From contig CAYSPW010000001.1 in assembly GCA_964433095.1 (NCBI GenBank), positions 4,296 through 68,295 of the forward strand: a stretch of 64,000 nucleotides of DNA. Direction: 5' to 3'. Below are positions 14,781 to 40,652 of the stretch, in pieces. Each line of letters starts with the position of its first letter. Within the stretch, counting starts at the first letter, position 1. Made by a program: the position numbers and the translations under genes. The notes under the pieces were generated by a model. It was given only the letters and a program-made list of their open reading frames with translations, was not told the DNA's origin and did no database searches. The DNA comes from an uncultured Gammaproteobacteria bacterium (GTDB taxonomy: Bacteria > Patescibacteriota > Patescibacteriia > Magasanikbacterales > UBA922).

Positions 14781-14783
14781 AAA

Positions 14784-15854: not shown

Positions 15855-15855
15855 A

Positions 15856-16710: not shown

Positions 16711-16750
16711 TTAATGTAGTTTAGATTAAATTTATTTGTAAATCAAGTAC

Positions 16751-16773: not shown

Positions 16774-16815
16774 GTAAAAAACACCGGTCTCGGATCAGCA
16801 CATATTATCCCGCTC

Positions 16816-17673: not shown

Positions 17674-17676
17674 AAA

Positions 17677-18720
17677 TCATCTTTCAATATATTGTTTAAC
17701 ATAATAATCTTGATATTGCCCGTTTTTTACTTCTTTTACCCAGTCGGAATTATTCAGATACCAATCCACAGTGCACCTGAGACCGTCATCAAGCTCTACT
17801 GCGGGCTCCCAATCCAATTCATCCGCTATTTTACCATAATCAATTGAATAACGCCGATCATGTCCCGGTCGGTCTTTGACATACTCTATCATGTTTTCAT
17901 CCTTATCCATTAGTTGAATTATTTTTTTAGTCAGCTGCAAATTGCTGATTTCCGAATTTTTTCCGCCTACGCAATAAGTTTCTCCGATCTTGCCTCTATG
18001 AATTATTACATCAACCGCGCGGGAATGATCATCCACGTGTATCCAATCCCTGATCTGCGCTCCGTCTCCGTACACCGGCACTTTCTTATTTTCAGTCAAA
18101 TTGGTTATAAACAAAGGGATGATTTTCTCCGGAAACTGATACGGACCGTAATTGTTGGAGCAATTGGAAATGGTGGCCGGAATTTGATAGGTATGATAAT
18201 ACGCTCGCACCAAGTGATCTGCCGCCGCCTTGGAGGCGGAATAAGGATTGCGCGGATAGTAGGCGGCGCGTTCGTTAAAAGAAGGATCATCCGCGGCCAA
18301 AGCTCCGAACACCTCATCAGTGGATATGTGATGAAATCTTGTTTGATGATACCTGACCGCATCCAGTAGTACTTGTGTTCCGAGCACGTTTGTTAACACA
18401 AACGCGGAACTGTCCATTATGGAGCGATCCACGTGGGTTTCGGCAGCGTAATTTATCACCATATCGGCCTGTTTGACCAAATTAAAAACCAAATCACTAT
18501 CACATATATCACCCTTTATAAATTGGTAGTTGGCGTTATTTTCCACCGATTTCAGATTCTTCAAGTTGGCCGCGTAAGTAAGTTTATCCAAATTCATCAC
18601 CGAGTAGTCGGGGTATTTTTTCATTATGTAGAGTATAAAATTAGAGCCGATGAATCCGGCACCGCCACAAACCAATATTTTCATACAATCATGTGGTATT
18701 AAAAAAAATATCCTACGCAA
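17677..18720 (-). CDS. rmlB: dTDP-glucose 4,6-dehydratase
   Basis: MKILVCGGAGFIGSNF, and the YSASKAAADH catalytic YxxxK. Confidence 0.9.
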   Translation of the reverse strand: MRRIFFLIPHDCMKILVCGGAGFIGSNFILYIMKKYPDYSVMNLDKLTYAANLKNLKSVENNANYQFIKGDICDSDLVFNLVKQADMVINYAAETHVDRSIMDSSAFVLTNVLGTQVLLDAVRYHQTRFHHISTDEVFGALAADDPSFNERAAYYPRNPYSASKAAADHLVRAYYHTYQIPATISNCSNNYGPYQFPEKIIPLFITNLTENKKVPVYGDGAQIRDWIHVDDHSRAVDVIIHRGKIGETYCVGGKNSEISNLQLTKKIIQLMDKDENMIEYVKDRPGHDRRYSIDYGKIADELDWEPAVELDDGLRCTVDWYLNNSDWVKEVKNGQYQDYYVKQYIER

Positions 18721-20688: not shown

Positions 20689-21114
20689 TTATTTGGCATG
20701 AAATTTCTCGGCGACTTGTTCGACCGGTTGATCGCCCGGGTGATTTATTATGCTATGCATATTACCTCCGCCATCGCCGCGCCAGCGCGGTAGTATATGC
20801 ACATGCAGATGCTCAACCACTTGACCGCCGGCCGGTTTTTGATTCCACCCCACGTTATATCCGTCCGGACTCAACTTATCATCAATTAACTTCATGGTCT
20901 TTTTTACCGCGGCGAACAATTCGGCAAACCCTTCGTTCATCTCAAGCGGCGTTGCGGCGTGAACCTTAGGTATAACAACCGTATGGCCTTTGGCACGCGG
21001 ATTAATATCCAAAAAAGCCAAGCTATTTTCATCTTCATAAATTTTATGCGCCGGAATTTCTCCTTGAATAATTTTACAAAATATACAATCCCGCATATTA
21101 AATTTCTTTATCAC
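20689..21114 (-). CDS. HIT-family nucleotide hydrolase
   Basis: Histidine triad VVEHLHVHILPRW. It overlaps the downstream membrane-protein gene by 17 nt. Confidence 0.85.
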   Translation of the reverse strand: MIKKFNMRDCIFCKIIQGEIPAHKIYEDENSLAFLDINPRAKGHTVVIPKVHAATPLEMNEGFAELFAAVKKTMKLIDDKLSPDGYNVGWNQKPAGGQVVEHLHVHILPRWRGDGGGNMHSIINHPGDQPVEQVAEKFHAK

Positions 21115-23341
21115 TAAAGCGCAATATTACATATTCATCAGTATAAAGAGGTTCTACATCCATTATACCATCCTGATACGCACCGTTGTCAATGGCCACA
21201 AAACACTGATCCGCTCCTGTCAAATGAAATGCCCGATTCAGCCCTTGTACCAAATTTCCTTCTGCAATTTCATCATATATCCGCATCCTCTCGGGCTGGG
21301 CGAATTGATAATCCATGGGAAATCCGCCTCCCGCTATTTTTGCGTGGGATTGAGCCTCAATTAACAACAAAAGCCAAGTATCGGCAATAATACAATGATT
21401 GTTGCTGGTGGTGGATATATTTTGTAAAATAATTCGCGCGGCTTGATATTCTTTATCCGACACCACCCTCATGTCAGGCCCCGAGCCATAAGCAATCACC
21501 CCCAGCAAGCTAAAAATAACTACCAATATTATAGTATACACTTTCACTACTACCGGGTTAAGAAACCTGGTTGACAACTTATTAAACGAAGCGCCGACAA
21601 ACGAAAGAAAAAAGATTAAAATGATTAGCGCCAAAACATGATCCAATCTTCTGGTAAATAATCGATCGCCTTCCAGATAAAACCACCCGATAAGATAGGC
21701 CCCAAAACTCATAAAGGCTAAAAAGGTAACAAAAAACCAATACTTGTCGTTTTTTTTTATTACCGCGTTCATCAGCTCTAACAAAAAGCAAAGACAAATA
21801 ATTAGCATAAGCGGAATAACGATCCATCTTATGCCGGTAAAAAAATTTTCTACAAACGCGTAATTCGGAGTATGATTAAAAAAAATATTGCCCATCAATA
21901 TATCATGACTTCTGATGCCGCTGGCATAATACCAGCCGGAAAAAATAGCCAAGGCCTTTTTAGCGGATAATACTAAATCGTACTGTTCCGGCAACCGGCT
22001 AATTTTGGCGCTTAATTCAATAGCAGGAAAAAAAAGCGGCGCTCCCAGAAGCAGAATAATTTTTGCCGGAATCAACAATGCTTTTTTCTTAGCACGGGCA
22101 ATCAAACCATAAACAAACACCACCGGTACGGAAAAGAATAGTAGCAAAAAATGCAAGCTGTATCCGAATAGCATTAAAAAAGTAAATATTGCCGCCGGCA
22201 AGAGCTGGCCGGGCGCCTGATCTTGAAAATACTGAAGCCACAAACACATCACAAACAAAAAAACCACAAAACCCAAGCTTACCGGCAAACTGATCGCTCC
22301 CAAAACTTGAAACGTAAACGGCAACAGGCCGAGCCAGGCCAGCAACAATCCCATGCGCCAATTGCGAAATATCAGGTGGCCGATTCTAAATAAAAACATT
22401 GTTCCAAATACCGACCAAAGCAAAGGCACCAGCCACTTGCTCACGGTCGCTAAATCCAAATTAAAACCACCCGCCACGAGCACGTTCACGGCCCAATAGT
22501 GCGCGTAAGTAAACTTTTGCGGCACGGTAAAAACTTCCGGCAAATCTATTCCGGCCGCTTCCGTCCACCTGGCTTCATGTCCGTGTAAAACCGGCGGATA
22601 ATAATCTCCGTCAAGCAATTTTTCTTCTACAGCCACCATACGCCACACATCCCCTCCCCAAGGCATCTGATGGGATAAAGCCAAATAACTGTGGCATAAT
22701 ATTGACAGCAGTACCAAAAAAAACAAGACAATCTTTATTCGGCTCCTTGAAAAAATCAATATACCGAGTAGAAAAACGAGTATAAAAAAGAATGGCAGAT
22801 AAAACGGAGAAATAACTTGCCAAGGCGACCACAAAACCTGAATGCTACCTGCGGATCCGACAAGTAAGACAAAGGCGATAAACAATAAAATGACAAATAG
22901 CAAACTCACATACCATGATTGATCAAAAATAACCAAACTGCTCGTTAATTGACGAACGGGCTTTTTTTTAAGTCCGACTTTTTTTAAATCGCGGGCATAA
23001 TTAAAAATCAAATAGTTAATTAAAAATGAAAAGCTGTAAGCGGCCACTTGCGTATCGGGGCTGATGCGTGAAAAAGTGATAAATATCGCCGCTGTCAAAG
23101 TCAGGCTTAAAAAAGCGGCAAAAAAAGCAAGCAGCGATCTTTCCCAATATCTTGACCTTACCGCAAACACTAGCAATAAAATACGGTCAAAAAAATATGT
23201 TTGCACCAATAAAAACAGTACCATTATCGCGCCGTTCACAAATATCCGCTCCCAATAATGTAAATTGGAGTATAAAAAAAATATGCTGAGCACAGATAAC
23301 AGCAGAGCCAAGTACTGCTTTTTAAATAATTTATGTTTCAT
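21098..23341 (-). CDS. large polytopic membrane protein (about 14 TM plus C-terminal soluble domain), putative lipid-linked glycosyl/polymer transferase; paralog of 24027..26135
   Basis: 747 aa and mostly TM helices. It shares the loop motif W-G-x-D-x-[WF]-x3-A-x-E (WGGDVWRMVAVEE) with the other large membrane protein (WGYDPFLHRATEI). Confidence 0.45.
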   Translation of the reverse strand: MKHKLFKKQYLALLLSVLSIFFLYSNLHYWERIFVNGAIMVLFLLVQTYFFDRILLLVFAVRSRYWERSLLAFFAAFLSLTLTAAIFITFSRISPDTQVAAYSFSFLINYLIFNYARDLKKVGLKKKPVRQLTSSLVIFDQSWYVSLLFVILLFIAFVLLVGSAGSIQVLWSPWQVISPFYLPFFFILVFLLGILIFSRSRIKIVLFFLVLLSILCHSYLALSHQMPWGGDVWRMVAVEEKLLDGDYYPPVLHGHEARWTEAAGIDLPEVFTVPQKFTYAHYWAVNVLVAGGFNLDLATVSKWLVPLLWSVFGTMFLFRIGHLIFRNWRMGLLLAWLGLLPFTFQVLGAISLPVSLGFVVFLFVMCLWLQYFQDQAPGQLLPAAIFTFLMLFGYSLHFLLLFFSVPVVFVYGLIARAKKKALLIPAKIILLLGAPLFFPAIELSAKISRLPEQYDLVLSAKKALAIFSGWYYASGIRSHDILMGNIFFNHTPNYAFVENFFTGIRWIVIPLMLIICLCFLLELMNAVIKKNDKYWFFVTFLAFMSFGAYLIGWFYLEGDRLFTRRLDHVLALIILIFFLSFVGASFNKLSTRFLNPVVVKVYTIILVVIFSLLGVIAYGSGPDMRVVSDKEYQAARIILQNISTTSNNHCIIADTWLLLLIEAQSHAKIAGGGFPMDYQFAQPERMRIYDEIAEGNLVQGLNRAFHLTGADQCFVAIDNGAYQDGIMDVEPLYTDEYVILRFSDKEI

Positions 23342-24026: not shown

Positions 24027-26135
24027 ATGTCAATCCGGTTGAAATATACCATAATATACCTGTTTTGCCTAGCGGCTTTAATACTGGGTTTATTTTTTTC
24101 TCTACCGCTGTTGCCGCTGATAGCGCTAATTGCTTTATTGTTGTTAGCGGCCTTCACACTCAACCAAATTGAACTTTTAGCCTTACCGGGTTGGAATATT
24201 CTTTGGAGCTTTGTTATTTTATCCGGCATTATATTTTTGACGCACTCAATTATTTATTTTTTTTACAAAAGCACTCAAATCACAATATTATTATCTGTAT
24301 TGCCGCCCACCGCGCTTGCGTTGTATGTGTTGAAAGACAAAAAAATAAACTTGGTAAAACTACATCAGCTTAAAGCAAAGATAAAAAAAATCTTTTGTCA
24401 GAATATAACTCAAATTTCTAAAACAGACTGGCTTTTTTTGGCTATTTTAGTATTACAGTTGATTCTTTACCTGAAAACAAGGCAAAAAGCCACCTTTGAC
24501 GCTCTCGGATCTCCCTGGCCGCTCTTTGGCCCTCGTTTTTTTGTTTTGTACGCAATCAATACCACCGCCATTGTTTGGTACGCTTTTAAAAGTAAATCCG
24601 AACTGTTATGGCTGATCGCGGCCGTTTTTCAATTTTTACTCTCTTTCAATATTATCACCGCCGTATATCCGCTCGGTTGGGGTTATGATCCTTTTTTGCA
24701 CAGAGCGACCGAAATATATATTCATCAGTTTGGCGCCGCTTTGCCTAAAACCCCTTTCTATATTGGTCAATTCGCCATTGTAAACACTATCGCCCACCTG
24801 ACAGGCTGGGCAATAAAAACAATAGATATTTATCTGGTTCCGATTCTGGCCGGCATTTTACTGCCGCTGAGCGCGTACTTTGGACTACGACACGGCTTGC
24901 GTTTGAAAAAAAACGCGCTCAGGCTGGCCACGCTGGCCATCCTGCTCTATCCGCTCAGTTCTTTTGTGGCTACAACACCGCATAATCTGGCCAATCTTTT
25001 TACTTTGGTAAGCATATTTTTGTCGCTATTGTTGCTTCAAGGCAATAAATACTGGCCATTACCCTCTATTTTTTCCGCCCTGGCAATGGCCACCCACCCA
25101 TTAACCGGAATTTTCTCCGTGGTCATGTTACTGGCTCTCATGGCGCATAATCACGCGAATAAAATCTCCGGAAAAATTTTCATTATATTTCTTTTTACAG
25201 CCTCAAGTGTTATGGTGCCATTTTTTTTCTGGATATATTCACTCGTTGGCGGAATGGAAATTCAATTTTCCTTAAACTCGCAAGCTTTTTTCAATTTGTT
25301 TTCTGAGCCATATTATTTTATCAACCGGCCAGCACATTTTATCTACGATCTGGTTTACGCCTATAGATTCTTTCTGCCAGGCATTTTAATTTCACTGGCT
25401 TTGCTGGTCTTTTTAAAAAAACAATATCGCCATGCAAAAATCATGTACTTTCCCTTGGTTTCGCTTTCTATTATGATCAATATATTAATCATCAACTCAA
25501 TGATTAAATTTGTCAACCTGAACGCTTTTGAGCAGTCACACTATGCCGAACGTCTATTGCATTCCACTCTGTTTTTCATTCTCCCGCTCTCGTCATTGGG
25601 ATTGGTAAGATTAGTAGAGTATACAAAAAAAATAAGTAATTCGCTGTTACTTTTAATTTTGAGCGTCTTGATATTAGCTCTTACCGCCTCTTTTTACTTG
25701 ACTTATCCGCAAAAAAATCCTATCGCCCATTTTCCAGGCTACAACATAACCAAAGCGGATTATTCAGCCGCAAAACTAATAAAAAACCTCAATCGGGAAC
25801 AAAACTATGTGGTGCTATCCAACATCATGACCGCGGCCGCGGCAATAGAAACGTACGGCTTTGAAACATATTTTAACAGCACCCAAGGACCTCTGTTTTA
25901 CTATGCCATTCCCTCGGGCGGACCTTTGGCCGAGCTTTATTCGAATATGCTCTATCACGAACAAAAAAGACAATACATGTACCAGGCGATGGACTTGACA
26001 CAAGCTAAAAAAGCTTACTTTGTGGTAAATTCTTACTGGCATAAAAGTATGGAAATAATTCAAGGCGCCAAACAGACCGCGGATAAATATTGGTCAATTG
26101 ACGATAAAATTTGGATTTTTGAATATAAAAGGTAA
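24027..26135 (+). CDS. large polytopic membrane protein, paralog of 21098..23341
   Basis: 702 aa with many TM helices and a C-terminal soluble domain. It shares the WG-x-D...A-x-E loop motif. Confidence 0.45.
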   Translation: MSIRLKYTIIYLFCLAALILGLFFSLPLLPLIALIALLLLAAFTLNQIELLALPGWNILWSFVILSGIIFLTHSIIYFFYKSTQITILLSVLPPTALALYVLKDKKINLVKLHQLKAKIKKIFCQNITQISKTDWLFLAILVLQLILYLKTRQKATFDALGSPWPLFGPRFFVLYAINTTAIVWYAFKSKSELLWLIAAVFQFLLSFNIITAVYPLGWGYDPFLHRATEIYIHQFGAALPKTPFYIGQFAIVNTIAHLTGWAIKTIDIYLVPILAGILLPLSAYFGLRHGLRLKKNALRLATLAILLYPLSSFVATTPHNLANLFTLVSIFLSLLLLQGNKYWPLPSIFSALAMATHPLTGIFSVVMLLALMAHNHANKISGKIFIIFLFTASSVMVPFFFWIYSLVGGMEIQFSLNSQAFFNLFSEPYYFINRPAHFIYDLVYAYRFFLPGILISLALLVFLKKQYRHAKIMYFPLVSLSIMINILIINSMIKFVNLNAFEQSHYAERLLHSTLFFILPLSSLGLVRLVEYTKKISNSLLLLILSVLILALTASFYLTYPQKNPIAHFPGYNITKADYSAAKLIKNLNREQNYVVLSNIMTAAAAIETYGFETYFNSTQGPLFYYAIPSGGPLAELYSNMLYHEQKRQYMYQAMDLTQAKKAYFVVNSYWHKSMEIIQGAKQTADKYWSIDDKIWIFEYKR

Positions 26136-30660: not shown

Positions 30661-31131
30661 TCATTCTTGTATGATTAACATCCTATCGCCAATTTTTAAA
30701 CCATGCTCTTGTACCCAGCCACTTTTCAGCTCCAAAACCAAATTTGCCTCGGCTCGAGGAAAATATACTGTCAACCGTTCTTCATCGCGGCCCGGTTCTG
30801 GTTTGACATTGGGAGCGATATCCACCACCCGACCGCGATCAAGCCAAATAATGTCAATGGGAAACTCCATCTTTCTCATGACTATTTTATGCCGGGCATG
30901 ATTGAAATATAAAAAAAGCATACCGTCGTATTGTTCAAGACTTTCTCTCTTGCCTAAACCGCGATGCCAGTGGTAGGGAGTTTTTGCCACCAAAACATTC
31001 AAATTCTGATCCTTAAGCCGTATTCGCGCTTCCGGCCAATGTAGCTGCCATAAATTGACGCCGACTACCGATAATACGAAAATGGCAATAATAATTATTT
31101 GAAATTTACTTAATTTTCTTTTGTTTTTCAT
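30661..31131 (-). CDS. DUF192 family protein
   Basis: N-terminal TM helix, plus YDGMLFLYFNHARHKIVMRKMEFPIDIIWLDRGRVVDI typical of DUF192 (COG1430). Confidence 0.65.
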   Translation of the reverse strand: MKNKRKLSKFQIIIIAIFVLSVVGVNLWQLHWPEARIRLKDQNLNVLVAKTPYHWHRGLGKRESLEQYDGMLFLYFNHARHKIVMRKMEFPIDIIWLDRGRVVDIAPNVKPEPGRDEERLTVYFPRAEANLVLELKSGWVQEHGLKIGDRMLIIQE

Positions 31132-32189
31132 TTTGCCGCTTTTTTATCCCTAAATGAAAACCACACTCCGAGCAACAACATCAAAGCCAGTAAAAAAACC
31201 AGGGCTATTAGTTTTTGGCTACTTTGTAAAAACAAAGCGGTAAATCCGAATAAAAAGGAAATTGAATACATCAACAGCACGGCTTGCTTTTGCGTCAAGC
31301 CGGATTCCAATAATTTAAAATGCAAATGCTCTTGATCGCCTAAATAAATCGGCTTGTTTTTTTGCATTCTCCTGATCATGACTCGCGCCACATCCAGCAT
31401 GGGAATACCGATCACCAACAATGTAATGGCGATTTTTCCTCCGGATATGATAGCCAGAGATCCAAGCATAAAACCGGTAAACAATGATCCGCCTTCGCCC
31501 AAAAAAATCTTCGCCGGATGCCAATTCCATACCAAAAAACCCAGACAAGCGGCCGAGAATACAATGGCCAGCATGGCTACTTCCGGCTGATACCACTGGC
31601 TTTGCAAACTTAAAAAAAATATAATCAAAGCGCCGATACTGACGACACCGGCCACCAAACCGTCCAATCCATCCAAAAACTTGGTGGTAAACATTACTCC
31701 GAGCAGCCAGAAAAAAACCAAAATATCAGCCACTATTATCCAATTTCCCAATCCGATTACCGCCAGTTTATAATCAAGCGTAATGGTGCCACCCAAAGGG
31801 TTTGTGATAACGCGCGGTCCGATGCCGAAAACTATTATACTCAGTGCCGCCAGTATCGGAAAAATTATTTGCGCTCTGGCGCACAGTGAATATTTATCAT
31901 CCAAAAAACCGCCGATCATCAAAAACAAACCGCCTATAAATAAACCCAACATCTGAGTACCGGTTATGTCTCGTGCCATAAAATCACTGTAGCAAAGCAA
32001 ATATCCGGACACTATGAAAAAAGATAAAAAAATGGCCAGACCTCCGCCCAATGGAATTTTCTTCTTGTGAATTTTACGCGATTTTGCTTTCGGTTTATCT
32101 ACAACCCCTAATCTCGCCATTACATCTTTTACCAAAGCGGTAAGAAAAAATGAAATAACAAAAGTCAGCAAAAAATAACCGGCAAACAT
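31128..32189 (-). CDS. polyprenyl-phosphate N-acetylhexosamine-1-phosphate transferase (WecA/TagO-type, MraY superfamily)
   Basis: KIHKKKIPLGGGLAIF (WecA-type, not the MraY GTPTMGG). Also FLDDKYSL, TKFLDGLDGLVAG and C-terminal DQEHLHFKLL. Confidence 0.7.
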   Translation of the reverse strand: MFAGYFLLTFVISFFLTALVKDVMARLGVVDKPKAKSRKIHKKKIPLGGGLAIFLSFFIVSGYLLCYSDFMARDITGTQMLGLFIGGLFLMIGGFLDDKYSLCARAQIIFPILAALSIIVFGIGPRVITNPLGGTITLDYKLAVIGLGNWIIVADILVFFWLLGVMFTTKFLDGLDGLVAGVVSIGALIIFFLSLQSQWYQPEVAMLAIVFSAACLGFLVWNWHPAKIFLGEGGSLFTGFMLGSLAIISGGKIAITLLVIGIPMLDVARVMIRRMQKNKPIYLGDQEHLHFKLLESGLTQKQAVLLMYSISFLFGFTALFLQSSQKLIALVFLLALMLLLGVWFSFRDKKAAK

Positions 32190-32201: not shown

Positions 32202-34955
32202 TTAATCCTCGCCTTTATCCACTATAATTTCCAAATTCTCCCCTAAAACTACTTCGTCTTTACGCCTTAGTTTACCAGAGATCAATAGTTCAGCCAATTT
32301 GTTCTCTACATAATCTTGAATGGCGCGACGCATCGGTCTGGCGCCGAATTCCGGATCATATCCCACATCGGCCATTGCATCCAAAGCTTGGGACTTGACT
32401 CTTAGCGTGATCCCCCTCTTTTCCAGATCCTGTTCCACTCTCTTGAGCATTAGCGAAGCAATTTGCCTGATCTCCTGCTTGGTCAATGATTTAAACAACA
32501 CAATGGCGTCAAATCGATTTAAAAATTCAGGCCGGTAATATTGTTTCAATTCAGTACGGATCATCGACTGCCGTATCTGTTCCAAAGGTATTCCTTGCCT
32601 GAGCTGTTCTTGTACAAAATCCGTGCCGGCGTTAGATGTGGCAATAATGATGGTGTTACAAAAATTAATCACCCGACCTACGCTGTCTGTCAGCCTGCCA
32701 TCGTCAAAAACCTGTAAAAACAAATTTAGAATACCGGAATCCGCTTTTTCCAGCTCGTCCAGAAGCAGTAGTGAAAATGGATTTTGCCTTACCGCCTCGG
32801 TCAGCAGGCCAGTACCCTGCCGATTCGGTTCGCCGATCAACCGGTAAATACTTAATTTGTCTTGGTATTCGCTCATGTCCAACCTAATCATCCTCTCTTC
32901 GGAACCAAAATATATTTGGGCAATGGTTTTAGCCAACTCAGTCTTTCCCACTCCGGTAGGCCCAAGAAACAAAAAATTGGCTATCGGCCGATCTTGCGAC
33001 CTCATTTCCGCTCTTGCCCGGCGCAAAGCATTGGCTACCAAGGAAACCGCTTCATGCTGGCCAATAATCCTCTGATGCATTTCCTCTTCCAAGCGGAGTA
33101 ATTTTTCCGATTCGCTTTCGGTAATACTGGTAGTCAGTACTCCGGTCTTGTCGCTGATGACCTTTGCCACGTCATCGGGCTTGACCAAGTGCAATTCTTT
33201 TGATTTAGAGTGTACCATAGCCGCGGTTTCTCTCATCACTTCAATCGCGCTCGCCGGCATATTCTGATCATACATGAATTGATCGGCTAAAACGGCCGCT
33301 TTTTCCAAAGCGTCATAAGTAAAAAATACGTTATTCTTGTATTCGGCATGCGCCACTTTTGATTCCAACACCTGAACGGTCTGATTGACATCCATTTCCT
33401 CTATATCCACCTTGCTGAACGACTTGCCCACTTGAGTATTGACGATATTACGGCTATATCCTTCCACGGTAGTAGTAGCGAACGTTAAAAAATTTCCTCT
33501 GACCAAATACTCAGCTAATGTTTCGGATACATCTAGATTTTCTCCTTGCCCTTGTGCGGTACCAACCAAATCATCAAGGTTATTTATTAGCAAAATGATG
33601 TTGCCGGCGCGCGCCACTTCATTCATAATGCGGATAAGCCTTTCTTGTGCTCCACTGACCGAAGTTCCGGCTAAAAGCGAGGAGTTGGAAAGATATACCA
33701 ATCGCTTGTCTTTGAGGCGCTCCGGCACGTTTTCCTCAACCATCCTTTGCGCGATGCCTTCCATAATACTCATTTTACCCACTCCATGTTCCCCCACTAA
33801 AATTACACTTTGTTGTCCGGCGTCCACTATCCGAAAAATCTCTTCTATTTCTTTATCACGCGCCATGCAAGGATTAAGGCGTCCGTATTTGGCCGATAAA
33901 GTCAAATCCATACTAAAACTGTTCAAGAAGGGAGTAGCCACCGCCGTCATCGCTCTATCCAGACCATGCTTGCTGCGACGCGTGGCCGCTTTTGATAATT
34001 TTATCTTTTGCCTTTTTAATTTTTTTCTGGTTCTGACCCAGCCGACCACATTATTTAATTTCTGTCCGTCAATATTAAAATCATACAAAATTTCCTGAAT
34101 AGCCTCTGACTGCATTACAGCGGCCAGCAACAACTCGCTCAAATCAACCAGTTCCTGCCTGTCCGAATAGGCCATTTCATAAGCATGCAGCAAAACCTGT
34201 TTAACATCTTCGCTTACAATCGGAATAACCGACTTTTCTCCTTTTTTTAAAAGCGCGGCCACTTTTCCTTTTATTGCTTTACTGGAAACCCCCAGCCGCA
34301 CAAAAATACCGACGACCTCTTGCGTGTCTAAAATAGTGTAAAAAAGATGGCTGACCGCGAATCGCACGCTTCTTTCCGACTCGGCAAATATGTAAGCGCG
34401 GTCAAGTAATTGTCGGACCTCCATTGAAAATGTATCTGATATGTCTTTTTTCTTTTTATTGGACAACCGATGAACCTGCGGCCAGGATTCAACTGACAAA
34501 CTGTCCCATTCTACTTTGTCTTGACCGTACGCGCGCGTTTCTACTTCTTCTATTTCCACTCCCATTGCCGAAATCCGGTAAATCATATAACTGAAAGAAA
34601 TGATGGACAGCCAAAAAATCACTCGCCAGCTATCGTCTCCGTTAATCCAGTATGAAACGGTAAAAATTTGTTCCGCCAGCGCAAAACGGTACACGTGCCA
34701 GACGTACAAAAACAAAAAGCCCAATCCGAATACGATCGCGCCAATGACATTGAATTTATCCAATATTTCCCTGCCCCGGCGCAGCCGGACATGATAGCTA
34801 TTGAGTGGCTGTCCCCAATACAAAAATTTTCCTCTTCTGCTCACGCCAAACCCCTTACCCTTACATTGCGGACATTTTTTAAAATTAAGATATCCGGAGC
34901 TGCCGCAAGTGCCGCAGCTTAAGATATTAAATTGTTCTTTTTTTTCAAACAACAT
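32202..34955 (-). CDS. membrane-anchored Hsp100/Clp-family double AAA+ ATPase with N-terminal zinc ribbon and degenerate D1 nucleotide-binding site
   Basis: N-terminal CGTCG...CPQCKGKG zinc ribbon. Two TM helices at about residues 68-90 and 104-126. Clp-N-like repeats. D1 Walker A is GEHGVGKMS at 33771-33794 and D1 Walker B is ILLINNLDD at about 33570-33593; both are non-canonical. D2 is canonical: GPTGVGKTELAK and LLLDELEKA. No obvious M-domain coiled coil or IGF loop. Confidence 0.8.
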   Translation of the reverse strand: MLFEKKEQFNILSCGTCGSSGYLNFKKCPQCKGKGFGVSRRGKFLYWGQPLNSYHVRLRRGREILDKFNVIGAIVFGLGFLFLYVWHVYRFALAEQIFTVSYWINGDDSWRVIFWLSIISFSYMIYRISAMGVEIEEVETRAYGQDKVEWDSLSVESWPQVHRLSNKKKKDISDTFSMEVRQLLDRAYIFAESERSVRFAVSHLFYTILDTQEVVGIFVRLGVSSKAIKGKVAALLKKGEKSVIPIVSEDVKQVLLHAYEMAYSDRQELVDLSELLLAAVMQSEAIQEILYDFNIDGQKLNNVVGWVRTRKKLKRQKIKLSKAATRRSKHGLDRAMTAVATPFLNSFSMDLTLSAKYGRLNPCMARDKEIEEIFRIVDAGQQSVILVGEHGVGKMSIMEGIAQRMVEENVPERLKDKRLVYLSNSSLLAGTSVSGAQERLIRIMNEVARAGNIILLINNLDDLVGTAQGQGENLDVSETLAEYLVRGNFLTFATTTVEGYSRNIVNTQVGKSFSKVDIEEMDVNQTVQVLESKVAHAEYKNNVFFTYDALEKAAVLADQFMYDQNMPASAIEVMRETAAMVHSKSKELHLVKPDDVAKVISDKTGVLTTSITESESEKLLRLEEEMHQRIIGQHEAVSLVANALRRARAEMRSQDRPIANFLFLGPTGVGKTELAKTIAQIYFGSEERMIRLDMSEYQDKLSIYRLIGEPNRQGTGLLTEAVRQNPFSLLLLDELEKADSGILNLFLQVFDDGRLTDSVGRVINFCNTIIIATSNAGTDFVQEQLRQGIPLEQIRQSMIRTELKQYYRPEFLNRFDAIVLFKSLTKQEIRQIASLMLKRVEQDLEKRGITLRVKSQALDAMADVGYDPEFGARPMRRAIQDYVENKLAELLISGKLRRKDEVVLGENLEIIVDKGED

Positions 34956-34961: not shown

Positions 34962-35324
34962 TTAGGATAAACCGAAAAAAGCAATGGCTAGCATCATAAC
35001 AACAACAATCGGGAAAACCAACCAGATTAACAACAATGCCAGTATAAAAATCAACACAAAAAACAAGGCTATTGATCTGCCGACAACATTGACTAAGCGC
35101 ATAAAAATACTAATCAGTCTGCCCTGCCAATCATATTGGCCGAACATGGGCACGGCTATATTTTTCAGCCACAAGCCGGGAGCCAAATAGCCATTGGCCG
35201 TAGATAGGATACCAATGCAAAATCCTCCCGCTTTTTTTACTCCGCCGGAAAACCACCATAAAGGAAAGTATAATATATCAAGTAAAAATTCCAATGCCAA
35301 TCTTTGCACTAAAATTACCCACAT
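34962..35324 (-). CDS. small membrane protein (3-4 TM), unknown function
   Basis: 120-aa hydrophobic ORF, 6 nt upstream of the membrane Clp-like gene. Confidence 0.4.
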   Translation of the reverse strand: MWVILVQRLALEFLLDILYFPLWWFSGGVKKAGGFCIGILSTANGYLAPGLWLKNIAVPMFGQYDWQGRLISIFMRLVNVVGRSIALFFVLIFILALLLIWLVFPIVVVMMLAIAFFGLS

Positions 35325-35372
35325 AAAATGTTGTTTAATACTTGACTAAATTATATCATATAGTCAAAAAAA

Positions 35373-35386
35373 CCCCTAGTCAGGGG
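35373..35386 (-). terminator. intrinsic terminator after ftsL (minus strand)
   Basis: On the minus strand, CCCCTGACTAGGGG hairpin followed by TTTTTTT. An inverted repeat TTGACTA...TAGTCAA lies just downstream. Confidence 0.4.
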
Positions 35387-35411
35387 TTTGTTTTACAAAA
35401 ATTAATTTTTC

Positions 35412-35756
35412 TTATCTGCGGGCCACTTCTGTGCCTGCCGGCAATATGAAATGCATATTTTCCGCTTCTACCATGCCTATTTGCGCCAACCGACTTTGAA
35501 TACTGTCCATTGATCGATACTTGGCAATCTCCACTTCCAGTTGCCTGGTATCCTGTTCTAAGGCTATTTTTTTTTCTTCCAAATCACTGATTTCAAAACC
35601 TTTGGTGGATACCGAACTGATTTTAGCCAAAAACAAAACACTCACCACCACCAGAAAAAAAGATAATATTAATCTGAAAGTTTTGCCTAAAAACCATTGC
35701 TTGGACGCTATTTTGCGCTCTCTTAAAGTTTGATTTTTATTTGTATATTTATTCAT
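35412..35756 (-). CDS. ftsL: cell division protein FtsL/DivIC-like (septum formation initiator)
   Basis: 114 aa with a single TM plus coiled coil. It sits directly downstream of mraZ-rsmH, as in dcw clusters. Confidence 0.55.
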   Translation of the reverse strand: MNKYTNKNQTLRERKIASKQWFLGKTFRLILSFFLVVVSVLFLAKISSVSTKGFEISDLEEKKIALEQDTRQLEVEIAKYRSMDSIQSRLAQIGMVEAENMHFILPAGTEVARR

Positions 35757-35791: not shown

Positions 35792-36706
35792 TTATTCTTT
35801 TTTTTCCGCCACTCTAAGCTTGGCTGATCTGGCGCGCGGATTTTGCTTGATTTCCGATAAGGAAGCGGTAACCGGTTTTTTTGTAATAATTTTTAAATCA
35901 TCAACGCTGGCTTTAAAAAAATGCTTCACTATCCGATCTTCCAAAGAATGAAATGAAATTACCGCCAACCTGGCTTCCGGCTCAAGCAACATCCGCGCTT
36001 GAACCAAAGCCCGCTCCAATATCTCCAGTTCGTTATTTACCGCAATTCTTAAAGCTTGAAAAGTGCGTGTAGCCGGGTGGATCTTGCCCACCCAGGGCAC
36101 GTCCTTATTGATTTTCAGCTTATTTCGATAGACCTGCAATATGATACGCGCCAAATCACCGGTGCGACTGATAGGTTTGTTTTTCCTCTCTCGTGTTATT
36201 GCTTTGGCGATCTCCGTGCTTAATTTTTCTTCTCCGTATACGCGCAATATTTGCTCCAGCTCTTCTTCGGATTCTTGATTGATAATTTCCGTCACGGTGG
36301 GTGATTTATCAAAAGCACCGTTAGCACAATATCGCATATCAAGCGGTTCGTCTTTTTTAAAGCTGAAGCCCCTTCCCCTTTCCGCAAACTGCGGACTTGA
36401 CCAGCCCAAATCCATTAATATTCCATGCACCGGCTGAAACCCGGTATTTTCAATAATCTCGTTTAAATTAACAAAATTATCTCTTACCAATACTACTCTA
36501 TCTTTGTATTGATACAAAAACCGCTTCGCCCTTAAAATTGATTCCGGATCAGCGTCTATGCCAAGCAATATTCCATTGGGAGCGCTAGCCTGTAACATGG
36601 CTTGGGCATGCCCGCCGTCTCCCACCGTACAGTCCACAATATTATCGCCCGATTTTATGTCCAACAGTTCCACTACCTCTTTTAGTAATACTGGTTTATG
36701 CTTCAT
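35792..36706 (-). CDS. rsmH: 16S rRNA (cytosine1402-N4)-methyltransferase
   Basis: MKHKPVLLKEVVELL...IVDCTVGDGGHAQAML. Confidence 0.9.
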   Translation of the reverse strand: MKHKPVLLKEVVELLDIKSGDNIVDCTVGDGGHAQAMLQASAPNGILLGIDADPESILRAKRFLYQYKDRVVLVRDNFVNLNEIIENTGFQPVHGILMDLGWSSPQFAERGRGFSFKKDEPLDMRYCANGAFDKSPTVTEIINQESEEELEQILRVYGEEKLSTEIAKAITRERKNKPISRTGDLARIILQVYRNKLKINKDVPWVGKIHPATRTFQALRIAVNNELEILERALVQARMLLEPEARLAVISFHSLEDRIVKHFFKASVDDLKIITKKPVTASLSEIKQNPRARSAKLRVAEKKE

Positions 36707-36720: not shown

Positions 36721-37149
36721 TTATACCCCCAATTCAGCCATCTGCTCGGCGATTTTATTGCTTTCTTTTTCTGTTTTCTTTTTGTAATCAATCCACTTTT
36801 CCTGATCCCATATTTCCAATCGATTGTACAGTCCGGCCACTACCACCCCTTTATTTAGATCAGCAAAATTACGCAAATAATCGGGCAATATTACTCTTCC
36901 CTGCTTGTCCAAATCTACATCCATGGCTCCGGCCAGCATCAGACGGGCAAACGCTCTCGCGTTAGCTTGAGAAAAAGGCAGTTGAGCCAGCTTGTCGGCC
37001 AATTGTTTCCATTCTTGGGCAGTATAGAAAAAAAGACAATTATCCAACCCCTTGGTCACCACCGCTCCTTTTGTCAACTTTGCTCTAAACTTTTTAGGAA
37101 TAGCCAGCCGCCCTTTTTCGTCTAAATTATGTGAATACTCACCGATGAA
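36721..37149 (-). CDS. mraZ: transcriptional regulator MraZ
   Basis: MFIGEYSHNLDEKGRLAIPKKFR, with two MraZ repeats. The track ORF extends to 37179. Confidence 0.85.
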   Translation of the reverse strand, partial: FIGEYSHNLDEKGRLAIPKKFRAKLTKGAVVTKGLDNCLFFYTAQEWKQLADKLAQLPFSQANARAFARLMLAGAMDVDLDKQGRVILPDYLRNFADLNKGVVVAGLYNRLEIWDQEKWIDYKKKTEKESNKIAEQMAELGV

Positions 37150-37224
37150 CATAAAATTAATTGATAAATAGATAGACAAGCATTGTTACCTATTTTTTAA
37201 GACGAAGCCAAATAACTGGAAATT

Positions 37225-37381: not shown

Positions 37382-38014
37382 ATGAACAAACCCGGACTAC
37401 TTCCATTACCTGAAAACTACATTATAATGATGGAACGTCTCAAGGGCATGAACATATTTGGCATGTTCATTGACAAATCCATCATCTTGGACGATCTGGT
37501 CAGGTTGTCCTGGCAGATAAAACTCCGCCATCCCCAAACCGCCATAAAAAGATTGGAAAACCTGGTGATGAGCAACCTGAGCTGTATTTATACTTTCAAT
37601 CAACCGGGATTGGTCTCAAGTGAAGGAAAAAGCTTTCCTTCCTACAAGTACCCGAAAATGGAGATAGAACGCTTGGCTTTGGGAACGCAGTCGCCAGAAG
37701 CCGTAAAAGACGTGGTTGGTGATAAATACTGCCGCGTGAATATTAATAAGCTTAGCTTGCAGTTGGGTTGTCGCGTGGGCAAGCCTACCACGTATGCCCT
37801 GCTGTTCGGCATTCTACTCGCGGCATGCGATTTGGCTGACGAAATCAAGGTTATCCAGAAGGGTAATCATGCCTGGGTGATGTATAAATTATTCGGGGTC
37901 AGCAGCTGGCATGTTGCCGATCCGTCAATAAAGGCTAGAGGTTTTTTGGAAAAGGATAATATAAATAAATACAAAAAAAATGCGGCCGCGGCCGATTTCG
38001 TTCTTTCCCTTTAA
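37382..38014 (+). CDS. transglutaminase-like / papain-like Cys-His-Asp fold protein (putative cysteine protease or deamidase)
   Basis: LGCRVGKPTTYALLFGILLAACDL...KGNHAWVMYKLFGVSSWHVADPS. Spacing is C-x33-H-x14-D, with the NHAW motif typical of the transglutaminase-like core. A strong SD AAGGAG lies 6 nt upstream of the ATG. GC is about 45%, against a 40% background. Confidence 0.4.
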   Translation: MNKPGLLPLPENYIIMMERLKGMNIFGMFIDKSIILDDLVRLSWQIKLRHPQTAIKRLENLVMSNLSCIYTFNQPGLVSSEGKSFPSYKYPKMEIERLALGTQSPEAVKDVVGDKYCRVNINKLSLQLGCRVGKPTTYALLFGILLAACDLADEIKVIQKGNHAWVMYKLFGVSSWHVADPSIKARGFLEKDNINKYKKNAAAADFVLSL

Positions 38015-38115: not shown

Positions 38116-39375
38116 TTATTTATTTTTTGTACCGATCTTTCTCAGCTTTCTCTGGTAATTAATAGCAAAACGATGTGCTTCGTCTCTCACACTAATCAAA
38201 ATTTGCTTGTTTTGATCCACCCATCTGACAAAATCTCCTTTACCGCTTCCCAGCACAACATCATTGCGCTTGCGCGTCGGACCTTTGGTTATTCCCACCA
38301 CCGGCGTTTCTACGCCGTATTGTAGCAAAACTTTTTTCGCCCGGTTTACTTGCGCTTTGCCGCCATCCACCAAAACCAAAGCCGGCGGCTTCCACTCCCG
38401 ATGCCGGAATCTTCTCACAAGCACCTCCTCCAAGCAATCCACGTCGCTTTGCCCTTGCACCGTCTTTATCTTGAACCGACGGTACTGTGATTTGAGCGGT
38501 TCGCCATGACTGAAAACCACCATGGAGCCCACCTTGCCGGACGAGCCCAAATTGGAGATATCGTAACCTTCTATTCTGGTACCATAAATCGATTCATTAT
38601 CTTGTGTGAATTCAGCGAAAAAATCTCTGTTCAAAATAGCGATATCATGAATCCGCCGCAAAGCGTTAATCTGATTTCTCAATCTGCCCGCTTCTTCAAA
38701 ATTCAACTGATCAGCCTTGCTTTTCATCTTATTTTGCAATTCCGTTATCAATCTTTTTTTATTGCCTTTTAAGAACATTACCAGAGGCCGTATCACTTTT
38801 GTCTTGTATTCAGCCGGTGATATCTCACCAACACACACACCCAGACATTGACCCATTTCATAATACAAACAAGGACGGCGTCTACCCGGACGGCAGACGG
38901 AAATATTAAACAAGCGTGAGAGTATTTTCATGGCCGCCTTGGTATTAAGTCCGGGATAAGGGCCGAAAATATGCGAATATTTCTTCAGCTGCGATTTGCT
39001 CAACCGCCGCAGCTCATGCTCCCGTATAAAAAAAACTTGCGGATAATTATCTTTGGAAATGACAATATAATTCCAGCTTTTATCATCCTTGCCCAGTACG
39101 TTGTATTTAGGCTGGTATTTTTTAATATAATCGGCCTCTTTTATCACCGCTTCCAATACCGAATCGGTTTCCAGATAATCCACTCGTTCAACTCTGTCCA
39201 GCATCTCTTCAATCGGACGGGACGAACGCTGACCGTAAAAATAGCTGCGCAGTCGTGATTTTAAAGAGGTGGCTTTTCCTACGTAAATAATTTTGCCAGT
39301 TTTATCGTAAAACAAATAAATTCCGGGGTCATTCGTGGCTTGGAAAATTTTTTCTTGTATTTTTTTCATATTCAT
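38116..39375 (-). CDS. uvrC: excinuclease ABC subunit C, short form lacking the C-terminal (HhH)2 domain
   Basis: GIY-YIG N-terminus (GIYLFYDKTGKIIYVGKATSLKSRL), a Cys-rich region, and a C-terminal RNase-H-like endonuclease motif DEAHRFAI. At 419 aa it is shorter than the typical roughly 600 aa. Confidence 0.8.
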   Translation of the reverse strand: MNMKKIQEKIFQATNDPGIYLFYDKTGKIIYVGKATSLKSRLRSYFYGQRSSRPIEEMLDRVERVDYLETDSVLEAVIKEADYIKKYQPKYNVLGKDDKSWNYIVISKDNYPQVFFIREHELRRLSKSQLKKYSHIFGPYPGLNTKAAMKILSRLFNISVCRPGRRRPCLYYEMGQCLGVCVGEISPAEYKTKVIRPLVMFLKGNKKRLITELQNKMKSKADQLNFEEAGRLRNQINALRRIHDIAILNRDFFAEFTQDNESIYGTRIEGYDISNLGSSGKVGSMVVFSHGEPLKSQYRRFKIKTVQGQSDVDCLEEVLVRRFRHREWKPPALVLVDGGKAQVNRAKKVLLQYGVETPVVGITKGPTRKRNDVVLGSGKGDFVRWVDQNKQILISVRDEAHRFAINYQRKLRKIGTKNK

Positions 39376-39500: not shown

Positions 39501-40652
39501 GTGGCCAACAAAATCCAAACTATCAAATACAGGCGTACTGAGCAGGATGAATTCACGGATCTGCCGGTAGTGGTGGTTCCGGATACCCGAGGAAAAGCGG
39601 TAATGGATGAAAACAGAGATTTCTATTACTATCACTTCAAGACCGAACAGTGGATAAAGGTGAGGCATGGCATTTACCATCTATACCGGGCTTTGTCTTA
39701 CATGCTGCTTGGGTATATCTATATGGAAATGCCCGCATTGGAGAAAATAATTAAACAGTGCGAACAAGCGCATTTGGGCCAAATGTTCATCAACAAGTGC
39801 CTGCCCACGAATAATCACTTGAACATGTACACACTACTTTGCTCCATGGCCGAAAGAATGAGCAAAGCCATTGACGAAAACAAACAACGGGCATGCCTGC
39901 AGCTCGCCTACTGCACCGTAAACCGACTTAGAGACTCAAAGGGAAGATTGAACAACGGGGTACTGCAATGCCGCACGGCCACGGCCAAACGCCGACTGGA
40001 AGACCGGCTCGGGACTATCGCTCAAATTCAACCCAAAATCCTCTATATTCACCAACGCATTCGGAGTATCTTGACCAATTTGGAACAGTTGCTGGTGGAA
40101 TCACGCCAGCGGCTGAAAAACTCTTATGAACAGGCTTGTCTGGCAGATAAATGGGACAAACAAAACGCGCGGTACCACTCGATCAAGCAGTCAATTGAGA
40201 TTACCAAGGATAATATATCAAGGCTCAACATCAAACCTTTTACCAAAACAAGAGCCAGACTTCTCAAGGAAAGCGACCAAGCTCTCGCGGCCATGGAGAC
40301 GGACACAACTGATCAGTTTGGTCAAATCGTGAGCAAGATGGTCAACAGCTTACGCTTAATGATTTGCCGCGGGCAAATGGAATACTCCATGATCAACCTC
40401 GGACTGGCGATCAAAAAGCCGGTTTTAATGGACGAGGATCTGCTTTTAGTGGTACAAGATCAACTGCGGCAGGCACTGGACGTCATCACCAGCGTCAATG
40501 AACAGGGTTTTGAACAGCCGGTGTGCACCGACGCTGCCGACGCCCTGATCCAAGCCGTGGATGAACTGGACTTTATAAGCTGCTATCCTCCTGATCGGAG
40601 GCGGATAAAAAAGGCTAAAGCATTACTTGATAAAGCGATCGGGATGCTTTAG
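39501..40652 (+). CDS. hypothetical alpha-helical protein, compositionally atypical (GC about 47%)
   Basis: 383 aa with a GTG start preceded by GGAGG. It is rich in Q/R/L/C with CTG/CAG codon usage unlike neighbouring genes. I recognised no family motif. Confidence 0.45.
   Translation: MANKIQTIKYRRTEQDEFTDLPVVVVPDTRGKAVMDENRDFYYYHFKTEQWIKVRHGIYHLYRALSYMLLGYIYMEMPALEKIIKQCEQAHLGQMFINKCLPTNNHLNMYTLLCSMAERMSKAIDENKQRACLQLAYCTVNRLRDSKGRLNNGVLQCRTATAKRRLEDRLGTIAQIQPKILYIHQRIRSILTNLEQLLVESRQRLKNSYEQACLADKWDKQNARYHSIKQSIEITKDNISRLNIKPFTKTRARLLKESDQALAAMETDTTDQFGQIVSKMVNSLRLMICRGQMEYSMINLGLAIKKPVLMDEDLLLVVQDQLRQALDVITSVNEQGFEQPVCTDAADALIQAVDELDFISCYPPDRRRIKKAKALLDKAIGML

Follow-up and report, generated by a model that had tools for sequence, protein, structure and literature searches.

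A membrane-tethered Clp/Hsp100-like ATPase of Patescibacteria with a degenerate first ring and no aromatic pore loops

Introduction

Hsp100/Clp motors are soluble unfoldases that grip their substrates with tyrosines. What could be the role of a member of this family that is tethered to the membrane and has lost these tyrosines? The question is raised by a gene located at positions 32202-34955, on the minus strand, of a 64,000-nucleotide stretch of contig CAYSPW010000001.1 (hereafter called the window), from an uncultured bacterium that GTDB places in the Magasanikbacterales (Patescibacteriota). Judging from its sequence and predicted fold, the encoded ATPase is a membrane-tethered variant of the Clp/Hsp100 AAA+ family, specific to Patescibacteria (candidate phyla radiation, CPR) and not previously described. 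A literature search on Clp proteins of Patescibacteria or CPR, on membrane-anchored Hsp100 proteins and on Clp_N domains accompanied by transmembrane (TM) helices retrieved no description of the family, within the incomplete coverage of such a search. An earlier note, made by reading the window, had proposed a membrane-proximal unfoldase with an inactive first ring, standing where ftsI would be expected in the division and cell wall (dcw) cluster and involved in protein extraction or quality control. As argued below, we favour, with a probability of about 0.4-0.45, a remodeller that would not thread its substrates and that would be linked to a small membrane partner and to a glycosyltransferase encoded next to it.

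A two-ring ATPase of the Clp/Hsp100 family

The open reading frame (ORF) encodes 917 residues and starts with MLFEK, a start that the alignment shows to be kept among orthologues. Its assignment is based on Pfam, NCBIfam, PDB sequence and fold matches to ClpB and ClpC. Pfam recognizes an AAA_2 module (residues 656-818, E=4.5e-49), a ClpB_D2-small domain (6.2e-26), a second, weaker AAA module and an AAA_lid_9 domain after the first ring (D1). With such tandem AAA+ modules, the second being of the AAA_2 type and carrying ClpB_D2-small, the protein falls into class 1, the two-ring Clp/Hsp100 proteins. It departs from what is expected of the family, namely that each ring has working Walker A and B motifs, arginine fingers and an aromatic pore loop 1. 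It also scores under every NCBIfam equivalog cut-off. The highest profile score is obtained with the ClpB model TIGR03346, aligned in two pieces (556 bits, less than half of the cut-off of 1232.1). The ClpA model TIGR02639 covers residues 177-902 in a single stretch (475.5 bits versus a cut-off of 993) and NF008263 gives 344.5 bits versus 1350. The highest PDB sequence score is also to ClpB, and matches to ClpC reach about 440 bits. An AlphaFold2 model computed from a 36-sequence alignment has a mean predicted local distance difference test score (pLDDT) of 81.9 and displays two AAA modules, without inserted coiled coil, as well as a long helix at residues 297-326. When this model is compared with the PDB using Foldseek, the best matches are ClpC and ClpB chains, with a template modelling score of about 0.8 on the AAA core. 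An ORF on the opposite strand inside the gene (33439-34098), which nothing supports, was taken as spurious.

The family is large. Searching 5.8 billion proteins retrieved over 100 relatives of full length, sharing 54-64% identity with the query. Most bear a Magasanikbacteria or Patescibacteria label, and none has a more specific annotation than 'AAA family ATPase' or 'ATP-dependent Clp protease ATP-binding subunit'. A profile search among 1.84 billion representatives at 50% identity yielded at least 150 cluster representatives scoring at least 620 bits, nearly all of 840-940 residues; among the matches listed, all the named representatives belong to Patescibacteria (Parcubacteria, Uhrbacteria, Kerfeldbacteria, 'Patescibacteria group'). 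Two hundred and seventy sequences (270) were aligned, and motifs were tabulated for 120 close relatives and for 134 diverse full-length representatives, hereafter the close and diverse sets. One relative, P0197 (1191 residues, from a JGI/ENA contig), is extended at its C-terminus by a third AAA_2-type module and another D2-small domain, and may be a three-module protein or two fused genes. It was also observed that many ENA records of metagenome-assembled genomes (MAGs) titled 'uncultured Gammaproteobacteria bacterium' (L012, L013, L017, L019 and others) carry the locus organization typical of Magasanikbacteria, with mraZ, rsmH, ftsL, the small gene described below and the ATPase gene in this order. 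The genomes would belong to CPR bacteria, the titles looking like erroneous placeholders.

The first ring: a pseudo-ATPase

Motifs were mapped by residue-by-residue HMMER alignment to ClpB from T. thermophilus (1qvr) and ClpC from S. aureus (6em8). With the help of this alignment and of family conservation, the D1 module (33156-33920, minus strand, as are all the features of the ATPase described below) was recognized as a pseudo-ATPase. The Walker A motif reads GEHGVGKM in place of the canonical GEPGVGKT (33771-33794, coordinates confirmed via translation). At the Walker B position (33570-33596), ILLINNLDD is found where ILFIDELH is canonical, so that the catalytic Asp-Glu pair becomes Asn-Asn. 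In the alignments to both ClpB and ClpC, N458-N459 face the canonical Asp-Glu, and D461-D462 face the His-Thr of D-E-L-H-T. It is therefore unlikely that D461-D462 act as the Walker B acidic pair, since the alignment and a predicted strand ending at I457 both put them on the H-T of DELHT. D462 (33570-33572) is a nearly invariant aspartate at the position of the DELHT threonine; it may be structural or represent a relocated acidic residue. At the arginine-finger position (VGKSFSKV, 33408-33431), QVGKSFS stands against ALERRFQ, with KS for RR. In the pore loop (AGTSVSGAQ, 33645-33671; AGAKYRGE in ClpB, AGTKYRGE in ClpC), SVSG replaces KYRG and the tyrosine is changed to valine.

The earlier note had deduced from the Walker A and B motifs that D1 is probably unable to hydrolyse ATP. 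This view is reinforced, as both arginine fingers and the pore-loop tyrosine are also lost and as the same losses recur over hundreds of orthologues. A sequence error, which the note had named as a possible cause, does not account for these motifs. A Walker A ending in GK[TS] is found in 2 of the 120 close relatives (methionine in 110) and an Asp-Glu Walker B in none; the corresponding proportions in the diverse set are 43% and 4%. An aromatic residue in the D1 pore loop is likewise found in 0/120 close and 10% of diverse sequences. In Hsp100 proteins, loss of the Walker A threonine, of the Walker B Asp-Glu pair and of the arginine fingers abolishes hydrolysis. D1 keeps its fold and the lysine of GxxGxGK. 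Given that the catalytic residues are lost while the fold and this motif remain, D1 would be a structural ring, which may bind nucleotide. Purifying selection operates on D1, with a mean pairwise identity of 65% versus 80% for the second ring (D2) among close relatives, and of 35% versus 56% in the diverse set.

The second ring: an intact active site and a shortened pore loop

The D2 module (32205-33155) is predicted to be an active ATPase. Walker A (GPTGVGKT, 32940-32963) is identical to the canonical motif and Walker B (LLLLDELE, 32748-32771) has the canonical hhhhDE form. Sensor-1 (ATSNAG, with TSN, 32625-32642), the arginine finger (EFLNRFD, 32508-32528) and sensor-2 (GARPMRR, 32325-32345) are also intact. 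All five elements are nearly invariant and are conserved in both the close and the diverse sets. Hence, the description of D2 as canonical in the earlier note is correct for the ATPase site, but it does not extend to the pore loop. This loop, IGEPNRQGTGLLTE (32796-32837), is shortened and non-aromatic: its GEPNRQGTG is four residues shorter than GAPPGYVGYEEGG (canonical GAPpgyvGYEEGG), the GYVG being deleted. The HMMER alignment thus leaves neither ring with an aromatic pore loop 1. A canonical aromatic D2 loop occurs in 0/120 close relatives and in 10% of the diverse set; if any aromatic residue in the loop is counted, the values are 0/120 and 17%.

Pore-loop tyrosines are needed for threading in ClpB, ClpX, ClpA and Hsp104, and mutating the pore-loop tyrosine inactivates ClpB, ClpX and Hsp104. 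As the pore aromatics are missing from both rings, classical threading by the present ATPase is doubtful. The case for the word 'unfoldase' used in the earlier note is therefore weakened, all the more so since aromatic pore loops are gone from 120/120 close relatives and from 83-90% of the 134 diverse sequences.

Loss of the elements coupling to DnaK and ClpP

The coiled-coil M-domain is entirely gone. In the alignments, query residues 582-591 span ClpB residues 393-521, a coiled coil of about 125 residues, and the AlphaFold model is devoid of any coiled-coil insert. The shorter M-domain of ClpC is missing as well, query residues 588-591 spanning ClpC 409-471. In D2 (32586-32627), a deletion of seven residues coincides exactly with the 'fagfggs' of S. 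aureus ClpC, its ClpP loop, and this loop is missing from all the aligned orthologues. A scan of the whole ATPase for [ILVMA]G[FLM] tripeptides gave a sole match, inside the first TM helix. The alignments and the scan thus bear out the earlier remark that neither an M-domain nor a ClpP-docking loop is apparent. Without an [LIV]G[FL] loop, coupling to ClpP is not expected; without an M-domain, neither is coupling to DnaK, which argues against a disaggregase of the ClpB type. On these grounds, it is probable that the ATPase is a motor driven by D2 only and independent of both ClpP and DnaK.

Neither ClpP nor ClpX, FtsI or any Mur ligase was detected by Pfam scans of 30 further ORFs of the window. 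In a Kerfeldbacteria locus, a canonical Clp ATPase of 857 residues (L008:10333-12906) is encoded two genes downstream of the membrane-anchored ATPase. In another locus, a distant family member is preceded, at a distance of about 4.5 kb, by a tig-clpP pair (L091:1025-1627). The presence of such ordinary Clp components near family members indicates that the membrane ATPase coexists with them and does not replace them.

An N-terminal zinc ribbon and a membrane hairpin

Residues 12-47 (34815-34922) are seen in the alignment and in the AlphaFold model as a C4 zinc ribbon (C14, C17, C28, C31; CxxCxGxG-like) associated with a beta-hairpin bearing the conserved motif FLYWGEPLT.YH; the strands of this region have a pLDDT of about 89-91. 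The family consensus of the ribbon is CxxCxGxG plus CxxCxGM. Both CxxC knuckles, C14/C17 and C28/C31, are kept in 30 of the 36 aligned orthologues. The four cysteines are gone from the other 6/36, so that the ribbon is dispensable in some lineages; two CxxC pairs are found in 83/120 close and 79/134 diverse sequences. The best Pfam matches of the ribbon, DnaJ_CXXCXGXG (E=0.0016) and Anti-TRAP (E=0.0047), are both below threshold. With 19.1 bits for a cut-off of 32.7 over residues 14-35, PF00684 (DnaJ-type CxxCxGxG) indicates a resemblance only. A single-sequence search with the N-terminal 175 residues alone gave no match at E<=0.001.

The ribbon is followed by TM helix 1 (residues 67-89, 34689-34757; hydropathy 2.15, within an AlphaFold helix at 53-90), by an outside loop of 21 residues (34626-34688) and by TM helix 2 (residues 111-131, 34563-34625), which is supported by hydropathy, by an AlphaFold helix with the same limits and by the charge pattern. 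The mean Kyte-Doolittle hydropathy of TM helix 1 is 1.6-1.9 across the family, the two AlphaFold helices have a pLDDT of about 90, and at least one N-terminal hydrophobic segment is found in 119/120 close and 132/134 diverse sequences. The region preceding TM helix 1 is strongly basic (K+R/D+E of 13/4 in the query and 11.2/3.6 on average in close relatives), and the loop between the helices has a ratio of 1/3 in the query (mean 1.6/2.6). Kyte-Doolittle hydropathy, charge bias and AlphaFold agree on a hairpin with both ends inside, which puts the ribbon and all of the ATPase part on the cytoplasmic side. A membrane anchor preceded by a zinc ribbon, as read in the earlier note, is thus recovered from the cysteines and from the two TM helices.

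A poorly conserved tether of about 40 residues (34443-34562), modelled with low confidence around residues 141-150, connects the anchor to a diverged Clp_N-like domain (residues 172-292, 34080-34442). The Clp_N repeats announced by the earlier note can be kept only in this weaker form. Residues 171-340 scanned alone gave no Pfam match, but the ClpA profile TIGR02639 starts at residue 177, precomputed PF02861 matches exist for P0001, which is identical to the query, and for all the orthologues, relatives P0128 and P0171 exceed the Pfam Clp_N cut-off, and AlphaFold predicts eight helices over residues 172-292. Altogether, we retain the succession ribbon, hairpin, Clp_N-like domain, D1 and D2 with high confidence.

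A small membrane partner and a glycosyltransferase

A gene encoding a membrane protein of 120 residues (34962-35324, minus strand) ends 6 nt before the ATG of the ATPase. It has no match in Pfam, NCBIfam or PADLOC, and its homologues, distributed in at least 1017 clusters, are all called 'hypothetical'. The AlphaFold model (pLDDT 93) is a hairpin of two helices of about 50 residues each, whose hydrophobic ends (residues 1-25 and 84-118) sit together. Sixteen positions are invariant (P21, W23, W24, G28, W52, N55, P59, M60, G62, Q63, D65, G68, S72, R76, R83 and P105), and the tip loop carries the invariant motif P-M-[FY]-G-Q-x-D-W-Q-G-R. From the charge distribution, we infer that this tip is in the cytoplasm. 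A Foldseek comparison with the PDB returned only non-significant helical hairpins (PspA/Vipp1, BAR, AcrA; all E>2).

A motif scan using one genome per species found the small protein encoded in 316 genomes. The best 80 of these were inspected; all are Magasanikbacteria-like, and in 80/80 the ATPase gene follows the small gene on the same strand. The small gene also immediately precedes that of the ATPase in L001, L003, L005-L009, L091 and L092, and this adjacency extends to Parcubacteria, Uhrbacteria, Kerfeldbacteria and other distant lineages. As judged from gene order, the stable unit is the pair formed by the small protein and the ATPase, often accompanied by two further genes. One of them (31128-32189, minus strand), starting 12 nt after the ATPase stop codon, encodes a GT4 polyprenyl-phosphate sugar-1-phosphate transferase of the WecA/MraY superfamily (PF00953, 2.7e-27), hereafter GT4. 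It stays below the cut-offs of the WecA (104.6 bits) and MraY models; with 47.9 bits for a cut-off of 192, the idea that it is the MraY of the organism is unsupported. The other (30661-31131, minus strand) has a 4-nt overlap with the GT4 stop and encodes a DUF192 protein with an N-terminal membrane anchor (PF02643, 1.9e-25); it is the last gene of the tight block, the L21 gene coming next. The GT4 gene is conserved downstream of the ATPase in Magasanikbacteria, L006 and L009. GT4, DUF192 and L21 all follow in L006 and L009, and DUF192 and L21 in L007 and L092.

In one relative, P0127 (1231 residues; L092:4001-7696), the ATPase is fused in frame to GT4. BLAST alignments show that the ATPase part ends at residue 900 and that GT4 resumes at residue 903, which corresponds to GT4 residue 17. 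The junction therefore omits the first 16 residues of GT4, that is its first TM helix, and joins its basic loop. Since a read-through would have kept those 16 residues, the fusion looks genuine. The gene stands in the usual neighbourhood, with the small gene upstream and DUF192 and L21 downstream. P0127 would be either a Rosetta-stone hint of a physical link between the ATPase and GT4 or an assembly artefact. Taken together, the tight junctions (6 nt, 12 nt and a 4-nt overlap), the conserved adjacency and this fusion point to a link between the ATPase and GT4.

Position relative to the dcw cluster

On the minus strand, the genes come in the order mraZ (36721-37179; MraZ, 3.3e-43), rsmH (35792-36706; MraW methylase, 2.2e-101), an ftsL-like gene (35412-35756; FtsL models below threshold, 35.6 bits versus a cut-off of 55), then, after 87 nt, the small TM protein, the ATPase, GT4, DUF192 and L21. 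Two orthologous contigs have the same gene order. The surroundings described in the earlier note, with a WecA/MraY-family transferase after the ATPase, are thus recovered, the ftsL assignment being below threshold. In the 80 inspected genomes, mraZ-rsmH-(ftsL) is upstream of the small gene wherever the flank reaches. The dcw genes are also close by in Uhrbacteria, and they are absent from this position in Parcubacteria Gr01, Kerfeldbacteria and other lineages, where the upstream genes are TGT and CLIPPER (Parcubacteria, Kerfeldbacteria and L092), ATP synthase (L009) or, farther upstream, tig-clpP (L091).

The interval between the ftsL-like and small genes contains a putative terminator-like hairpin, AAACCCCTGACTAGGGGTTT, with a T-run after it (35370-35389, minus strand); it is a match to the consensus only. 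Of 78 related Magasanikbacteria loci (L010-L089), 48 have a comparable hairpin in the 160 nt preceding the small gene, versus 1 of 76 control windows. This difference suggests a transcription unit mraZ-rsmH-ftsL separate from the operon of the small protein and the ATPase. The dcw adjacency is lineage-specific, and the two groups of genes may not be co-transcribed. Hence, the location 'where ftsI would be' describes a position that is indeed fixed in Magasanikbacteria, but the other upstream genes met elsewhere and the hairpin after ftsL loosen the tie to the dcw cluster. The role in envelope biogenesis put forward in the earlier note remains plausible; it would be exerted via GT4, not via the divisome.

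Several other features of the window may be mentioned. A surface-glycan locus (11740-18720, minus strand) comprises a sugar nucleotidyltransferase, four GT2 enzymes, a RmlD-like reductase and an NDP-sugar 4,6-dehydratase, the latter matched by the GDP_Man_Dehyd and Epimerase models. Genes for a MurA-like protein (8996-10300), a CtpB-like S41 protease (7747-8994) and MurJ (51182-52795) are also found. A heat-shock operon (57330-63070, minus strand) contains hrcA (62294-63070), grpE (61430-61918), dnaK (58826-60778) and dnaJ (57330-58430), and a Band_7/SPFH gene (63132-63725) lies upstream of it. Three large ORFs have no Pfam match at E<=1e-5 (1055-3562, plus strand, 835 residues; 21098-23341, minus strand, 747 residues; 24027-26135, plus strand, 702 residues), and large genes without Pfam match also occupy the corresponding positions in L001 and L003. 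Two further ORFs without Pfam match (37382-38014, 210 residues, and 39501-40652, 383 residues, both on the plus strand) flank uvrC (38116-39375); they lie between mraZ and uvrA, on the strand opposite to mraZ. A search of the whole 64-kb window found no tRNA gene. PADLOC gave generic matches only, of about 108-111 bits, to DolB (residues 568-776 of the ATPase) and to PDC-M37B (residues 520-784), and none for the partner genes. As these matches are confined to D2 and part of the D1 lid, and as the neighbours L21, RecR and DnaB are housekeeping genes, the idea of an anti-phage defence ATPase of the Dodola (DolB) or PDC-M37B type was rejected.

Possible mechanisms

Considering these properties, several modes of action may be envisaged. 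In the model that we favour, D1 would be a static ring that may bind nucleotide and would support assembly, and D2 would be the sole motor. With a short Gly/Gln/Thr loop replacing the GYVG of D2, the ATPase would most likely not be a processive unfoldase threading polypeptides. It could be imagined as an ATP-driven remodeller with a low grip, or as a switch, working from the cytoplasmic side on a dedicated complex in the membrane. This complex would be built around the small hairpin protein, a partner suggested by synteny. In the present lineage, GT4 and the DUF192 protein would probably be the clients or co-workers, and the process concerned would be the initiation of a lipid-linked envelope glycan. 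It is tempting to go further and to imagine a two-protein membrane machine of Patescibacteria, made up of the small hairpin protein and the Hsp100 ring and acting, by analogy with Torsins and their cofactors, as a non-unfolding ATP switch or remodeller that would control the initiating glycosyltransferase and thus the growth or division of the envelope of these ultra-small bacteria; this extended version is a speculation to which we give little credence.

A number of observations weigh against the remodeller. About 10% of the family representatives retain GAPPG[YF]xG in D2. The ancestor therefore probably threaded substrates, and a polar loop might still translocate an extended chain. With the nearly invariant D462, D1 may retain some residual chemistry. 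As regards the partners, a distant member (P0262, locus L090) is preceded by an unrelated gene, some lineages lack GT4 and DUF192 as neighbours, and the fusion to GT4 is known from one protein on one MAG contig. Finally, we infer the function of the ATPase from sequence and synteny alone.

The retained GAPPG[YF]xG loops are also the main argument for a classical hexameric unfoldase or extractase, which would thread membrane or envelope proteins for the sake of quality control, in the manner of FtsH without its protease or of Msp1, and which would be tied to the dcw cluster and divisome in the place of ftsI. The Hsp100 fold and the intact ATPase site of D2 are compatible with such a machine; the anchor, being N-terminal to Clp_N, would point the substrate-entry face at the membrane; and the position after mraZ-rsmH-ftsL is fixed in Magasanikbacteria. 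However, neither the query nor any of 120 close relatives has an aromatic or hydrophobic pore-loop-1 residue in either ring, other lineages lack the dcw adjacency, a terminator-like hairpin follows ftsL, and Pfam detects in the ATPase no similarity to a penicillin-binding protein. Threading extraction is thus considered unlikely. The same loss of pore loops, added to a dead D1, tells against the name under which databases file these proteins, that of an ordinary ClpC or ClpA delivering substrates to ClpP. In favour of this name, the best fold matches are to ClpC-ClpP complexes, and ClpP is encoded near a distant relative. Nevertheless, the ClpP loop is deleted and no [LIV]-G-[FL] occurs outside TM helix 1, the short ClpC-type M-domain that would receive adaptors of the MecA type is missing, and the scores are far below the cut-offs of the ClpA- and ClpC-related equivalogs, so that this reading is scarcely credible.

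A ClpB-like disaggregase working with the DnaK system would more easily do without the ClpP loop, which ClpB also lacks. It is with ClpB that the NCBIfam and PDB sequence comparisons score highest, and the hrcA-grpE-dnaK-dnaJ operon lies within the same window. Yet, the M-domain that couples to DnaK has entirely disappeared, the pore tyrosines are gone and the 556 bits are to be compared with a cut-off of 1232.1; moreover, a membrane anchor and a dedicated membrane partner are ill-suited to bulk cytosolic aggregates. Such a disaggregase is very improbable. It might lastly be asked whether the many catalytic residues missing from D1 and from the pore loops betray a gene without function, be it a paralogue in decay, a mis-called ORF or the product of a sequencing or assembly error. 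Against this stand a full-length and intact gene, the recurrence of the same substitutions in hundreds of orthologues from independent samples, the 65% mean pairwise identity of D1 among close relatives, the synteny kept in 80/80 loci and the AlphaFold pLDDT of 81.9; the probability of decay or error is close to nil. The non-threading remodeller thus remains our preferred model.

Significance and comparison with known systems

A large, old and conserved branch of Hsp100, anchored in the membrane and having one working ring but neither pore tyrosines nor coupling elements, would widen the known roles of the fold. Thousands of entries named 'ATP-dependent Clp protease ATP-binding subunit ClpC' are probably mis-named. 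For CPR biology, where the envelope and division machinery is poorly understood, the family would represent a membrane module of two genes, unannotated and found across the lineage, with a link to the initial step of a lipid-linked envelope glycan pathway. If true, the fusion to GT4 would attach the ATPase to the membrane at both of its ends, resulting in an assembly geometry unlike that of any known Hsp100.

Among known systems, ClpC and ClpE, Clp ATPases of Firmicutes and Actinobacteria, share with the ATPase a two-ring Hsp100 fold, an AAA_2 D2 with D2-small and probably a Clp_N-type N-domain. ClpE has an N-terminal C4 zinc finger, and ClpX also has an N-terminal zinc motif; the motif at the extreme N-terminus of the ATPase recalls both. 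In contrast with ClpC and ClpE, the ATPase has a membrane hairpin after the ribbon and a dead D1, and it lacks the short M-domain, the ClpP loop and the pore tyrosine. ClpB and Hsp104 resemble it in having no ClpP loop and nearly identical D2 ATPase motifs, but the ATPase has lost the coiled-coil M-domain, the activity of D1 and the pore tyrosines, and it is tethered to the membrane.

FtsH and Msp1/ATAD1 offer another comparison, as they too combine an N-terminal membrane anchor with an AAA+ ring at the cytoplasmic face. However, FtsH and Msp1 are single-ring proteins from another AAA clade, their pore loops are strongly aromatic, and FtsH has an M41 protease domain in addition. No M41 or other peptidase domain is present among the Pfam and NCBIfam matches of the ATPase. 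FtsH and ClpCP control enzymes committed to envelope synthesis (LpxC, MurAA). As for D1, a non-catalytic ring that would serve as an assembly platform and may bind nucleotide has counterparts in D2 of NSF and in D1 of PEX1/PEX6 and p97. Unlike the ATPase, these are soluble proteins of the classic AAA clade whose active ring has retained its aromatic pore loops.

An analogy may also be drawn with Torsins. Torsins are membrane-associated relatives of the Clp D2 clade, devoid of aromatic pore loops and thought to work with small membrane partners, not by threading (PMC5425593, PMC7175109). They are thus, like the ATPase, membrane-associated relatives of Clp-D2 without pore aromatics. This is an analogy, direct descent being without evidence. 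Torsins have a single ring, face the lumen of the eukaryotic endoplasmic reticulum or nuclear envelope and obtain their arginine finger from LAP1 or LULL1, whereas the ATPase has two rings, is cytoplasmic and possesses its own D2 arginine finger and sensor-2. The family described here would nevertheless offer a bacterial model for non-threading relatives of Clp-D2 such as Torsins, the mechanism of which is debated.

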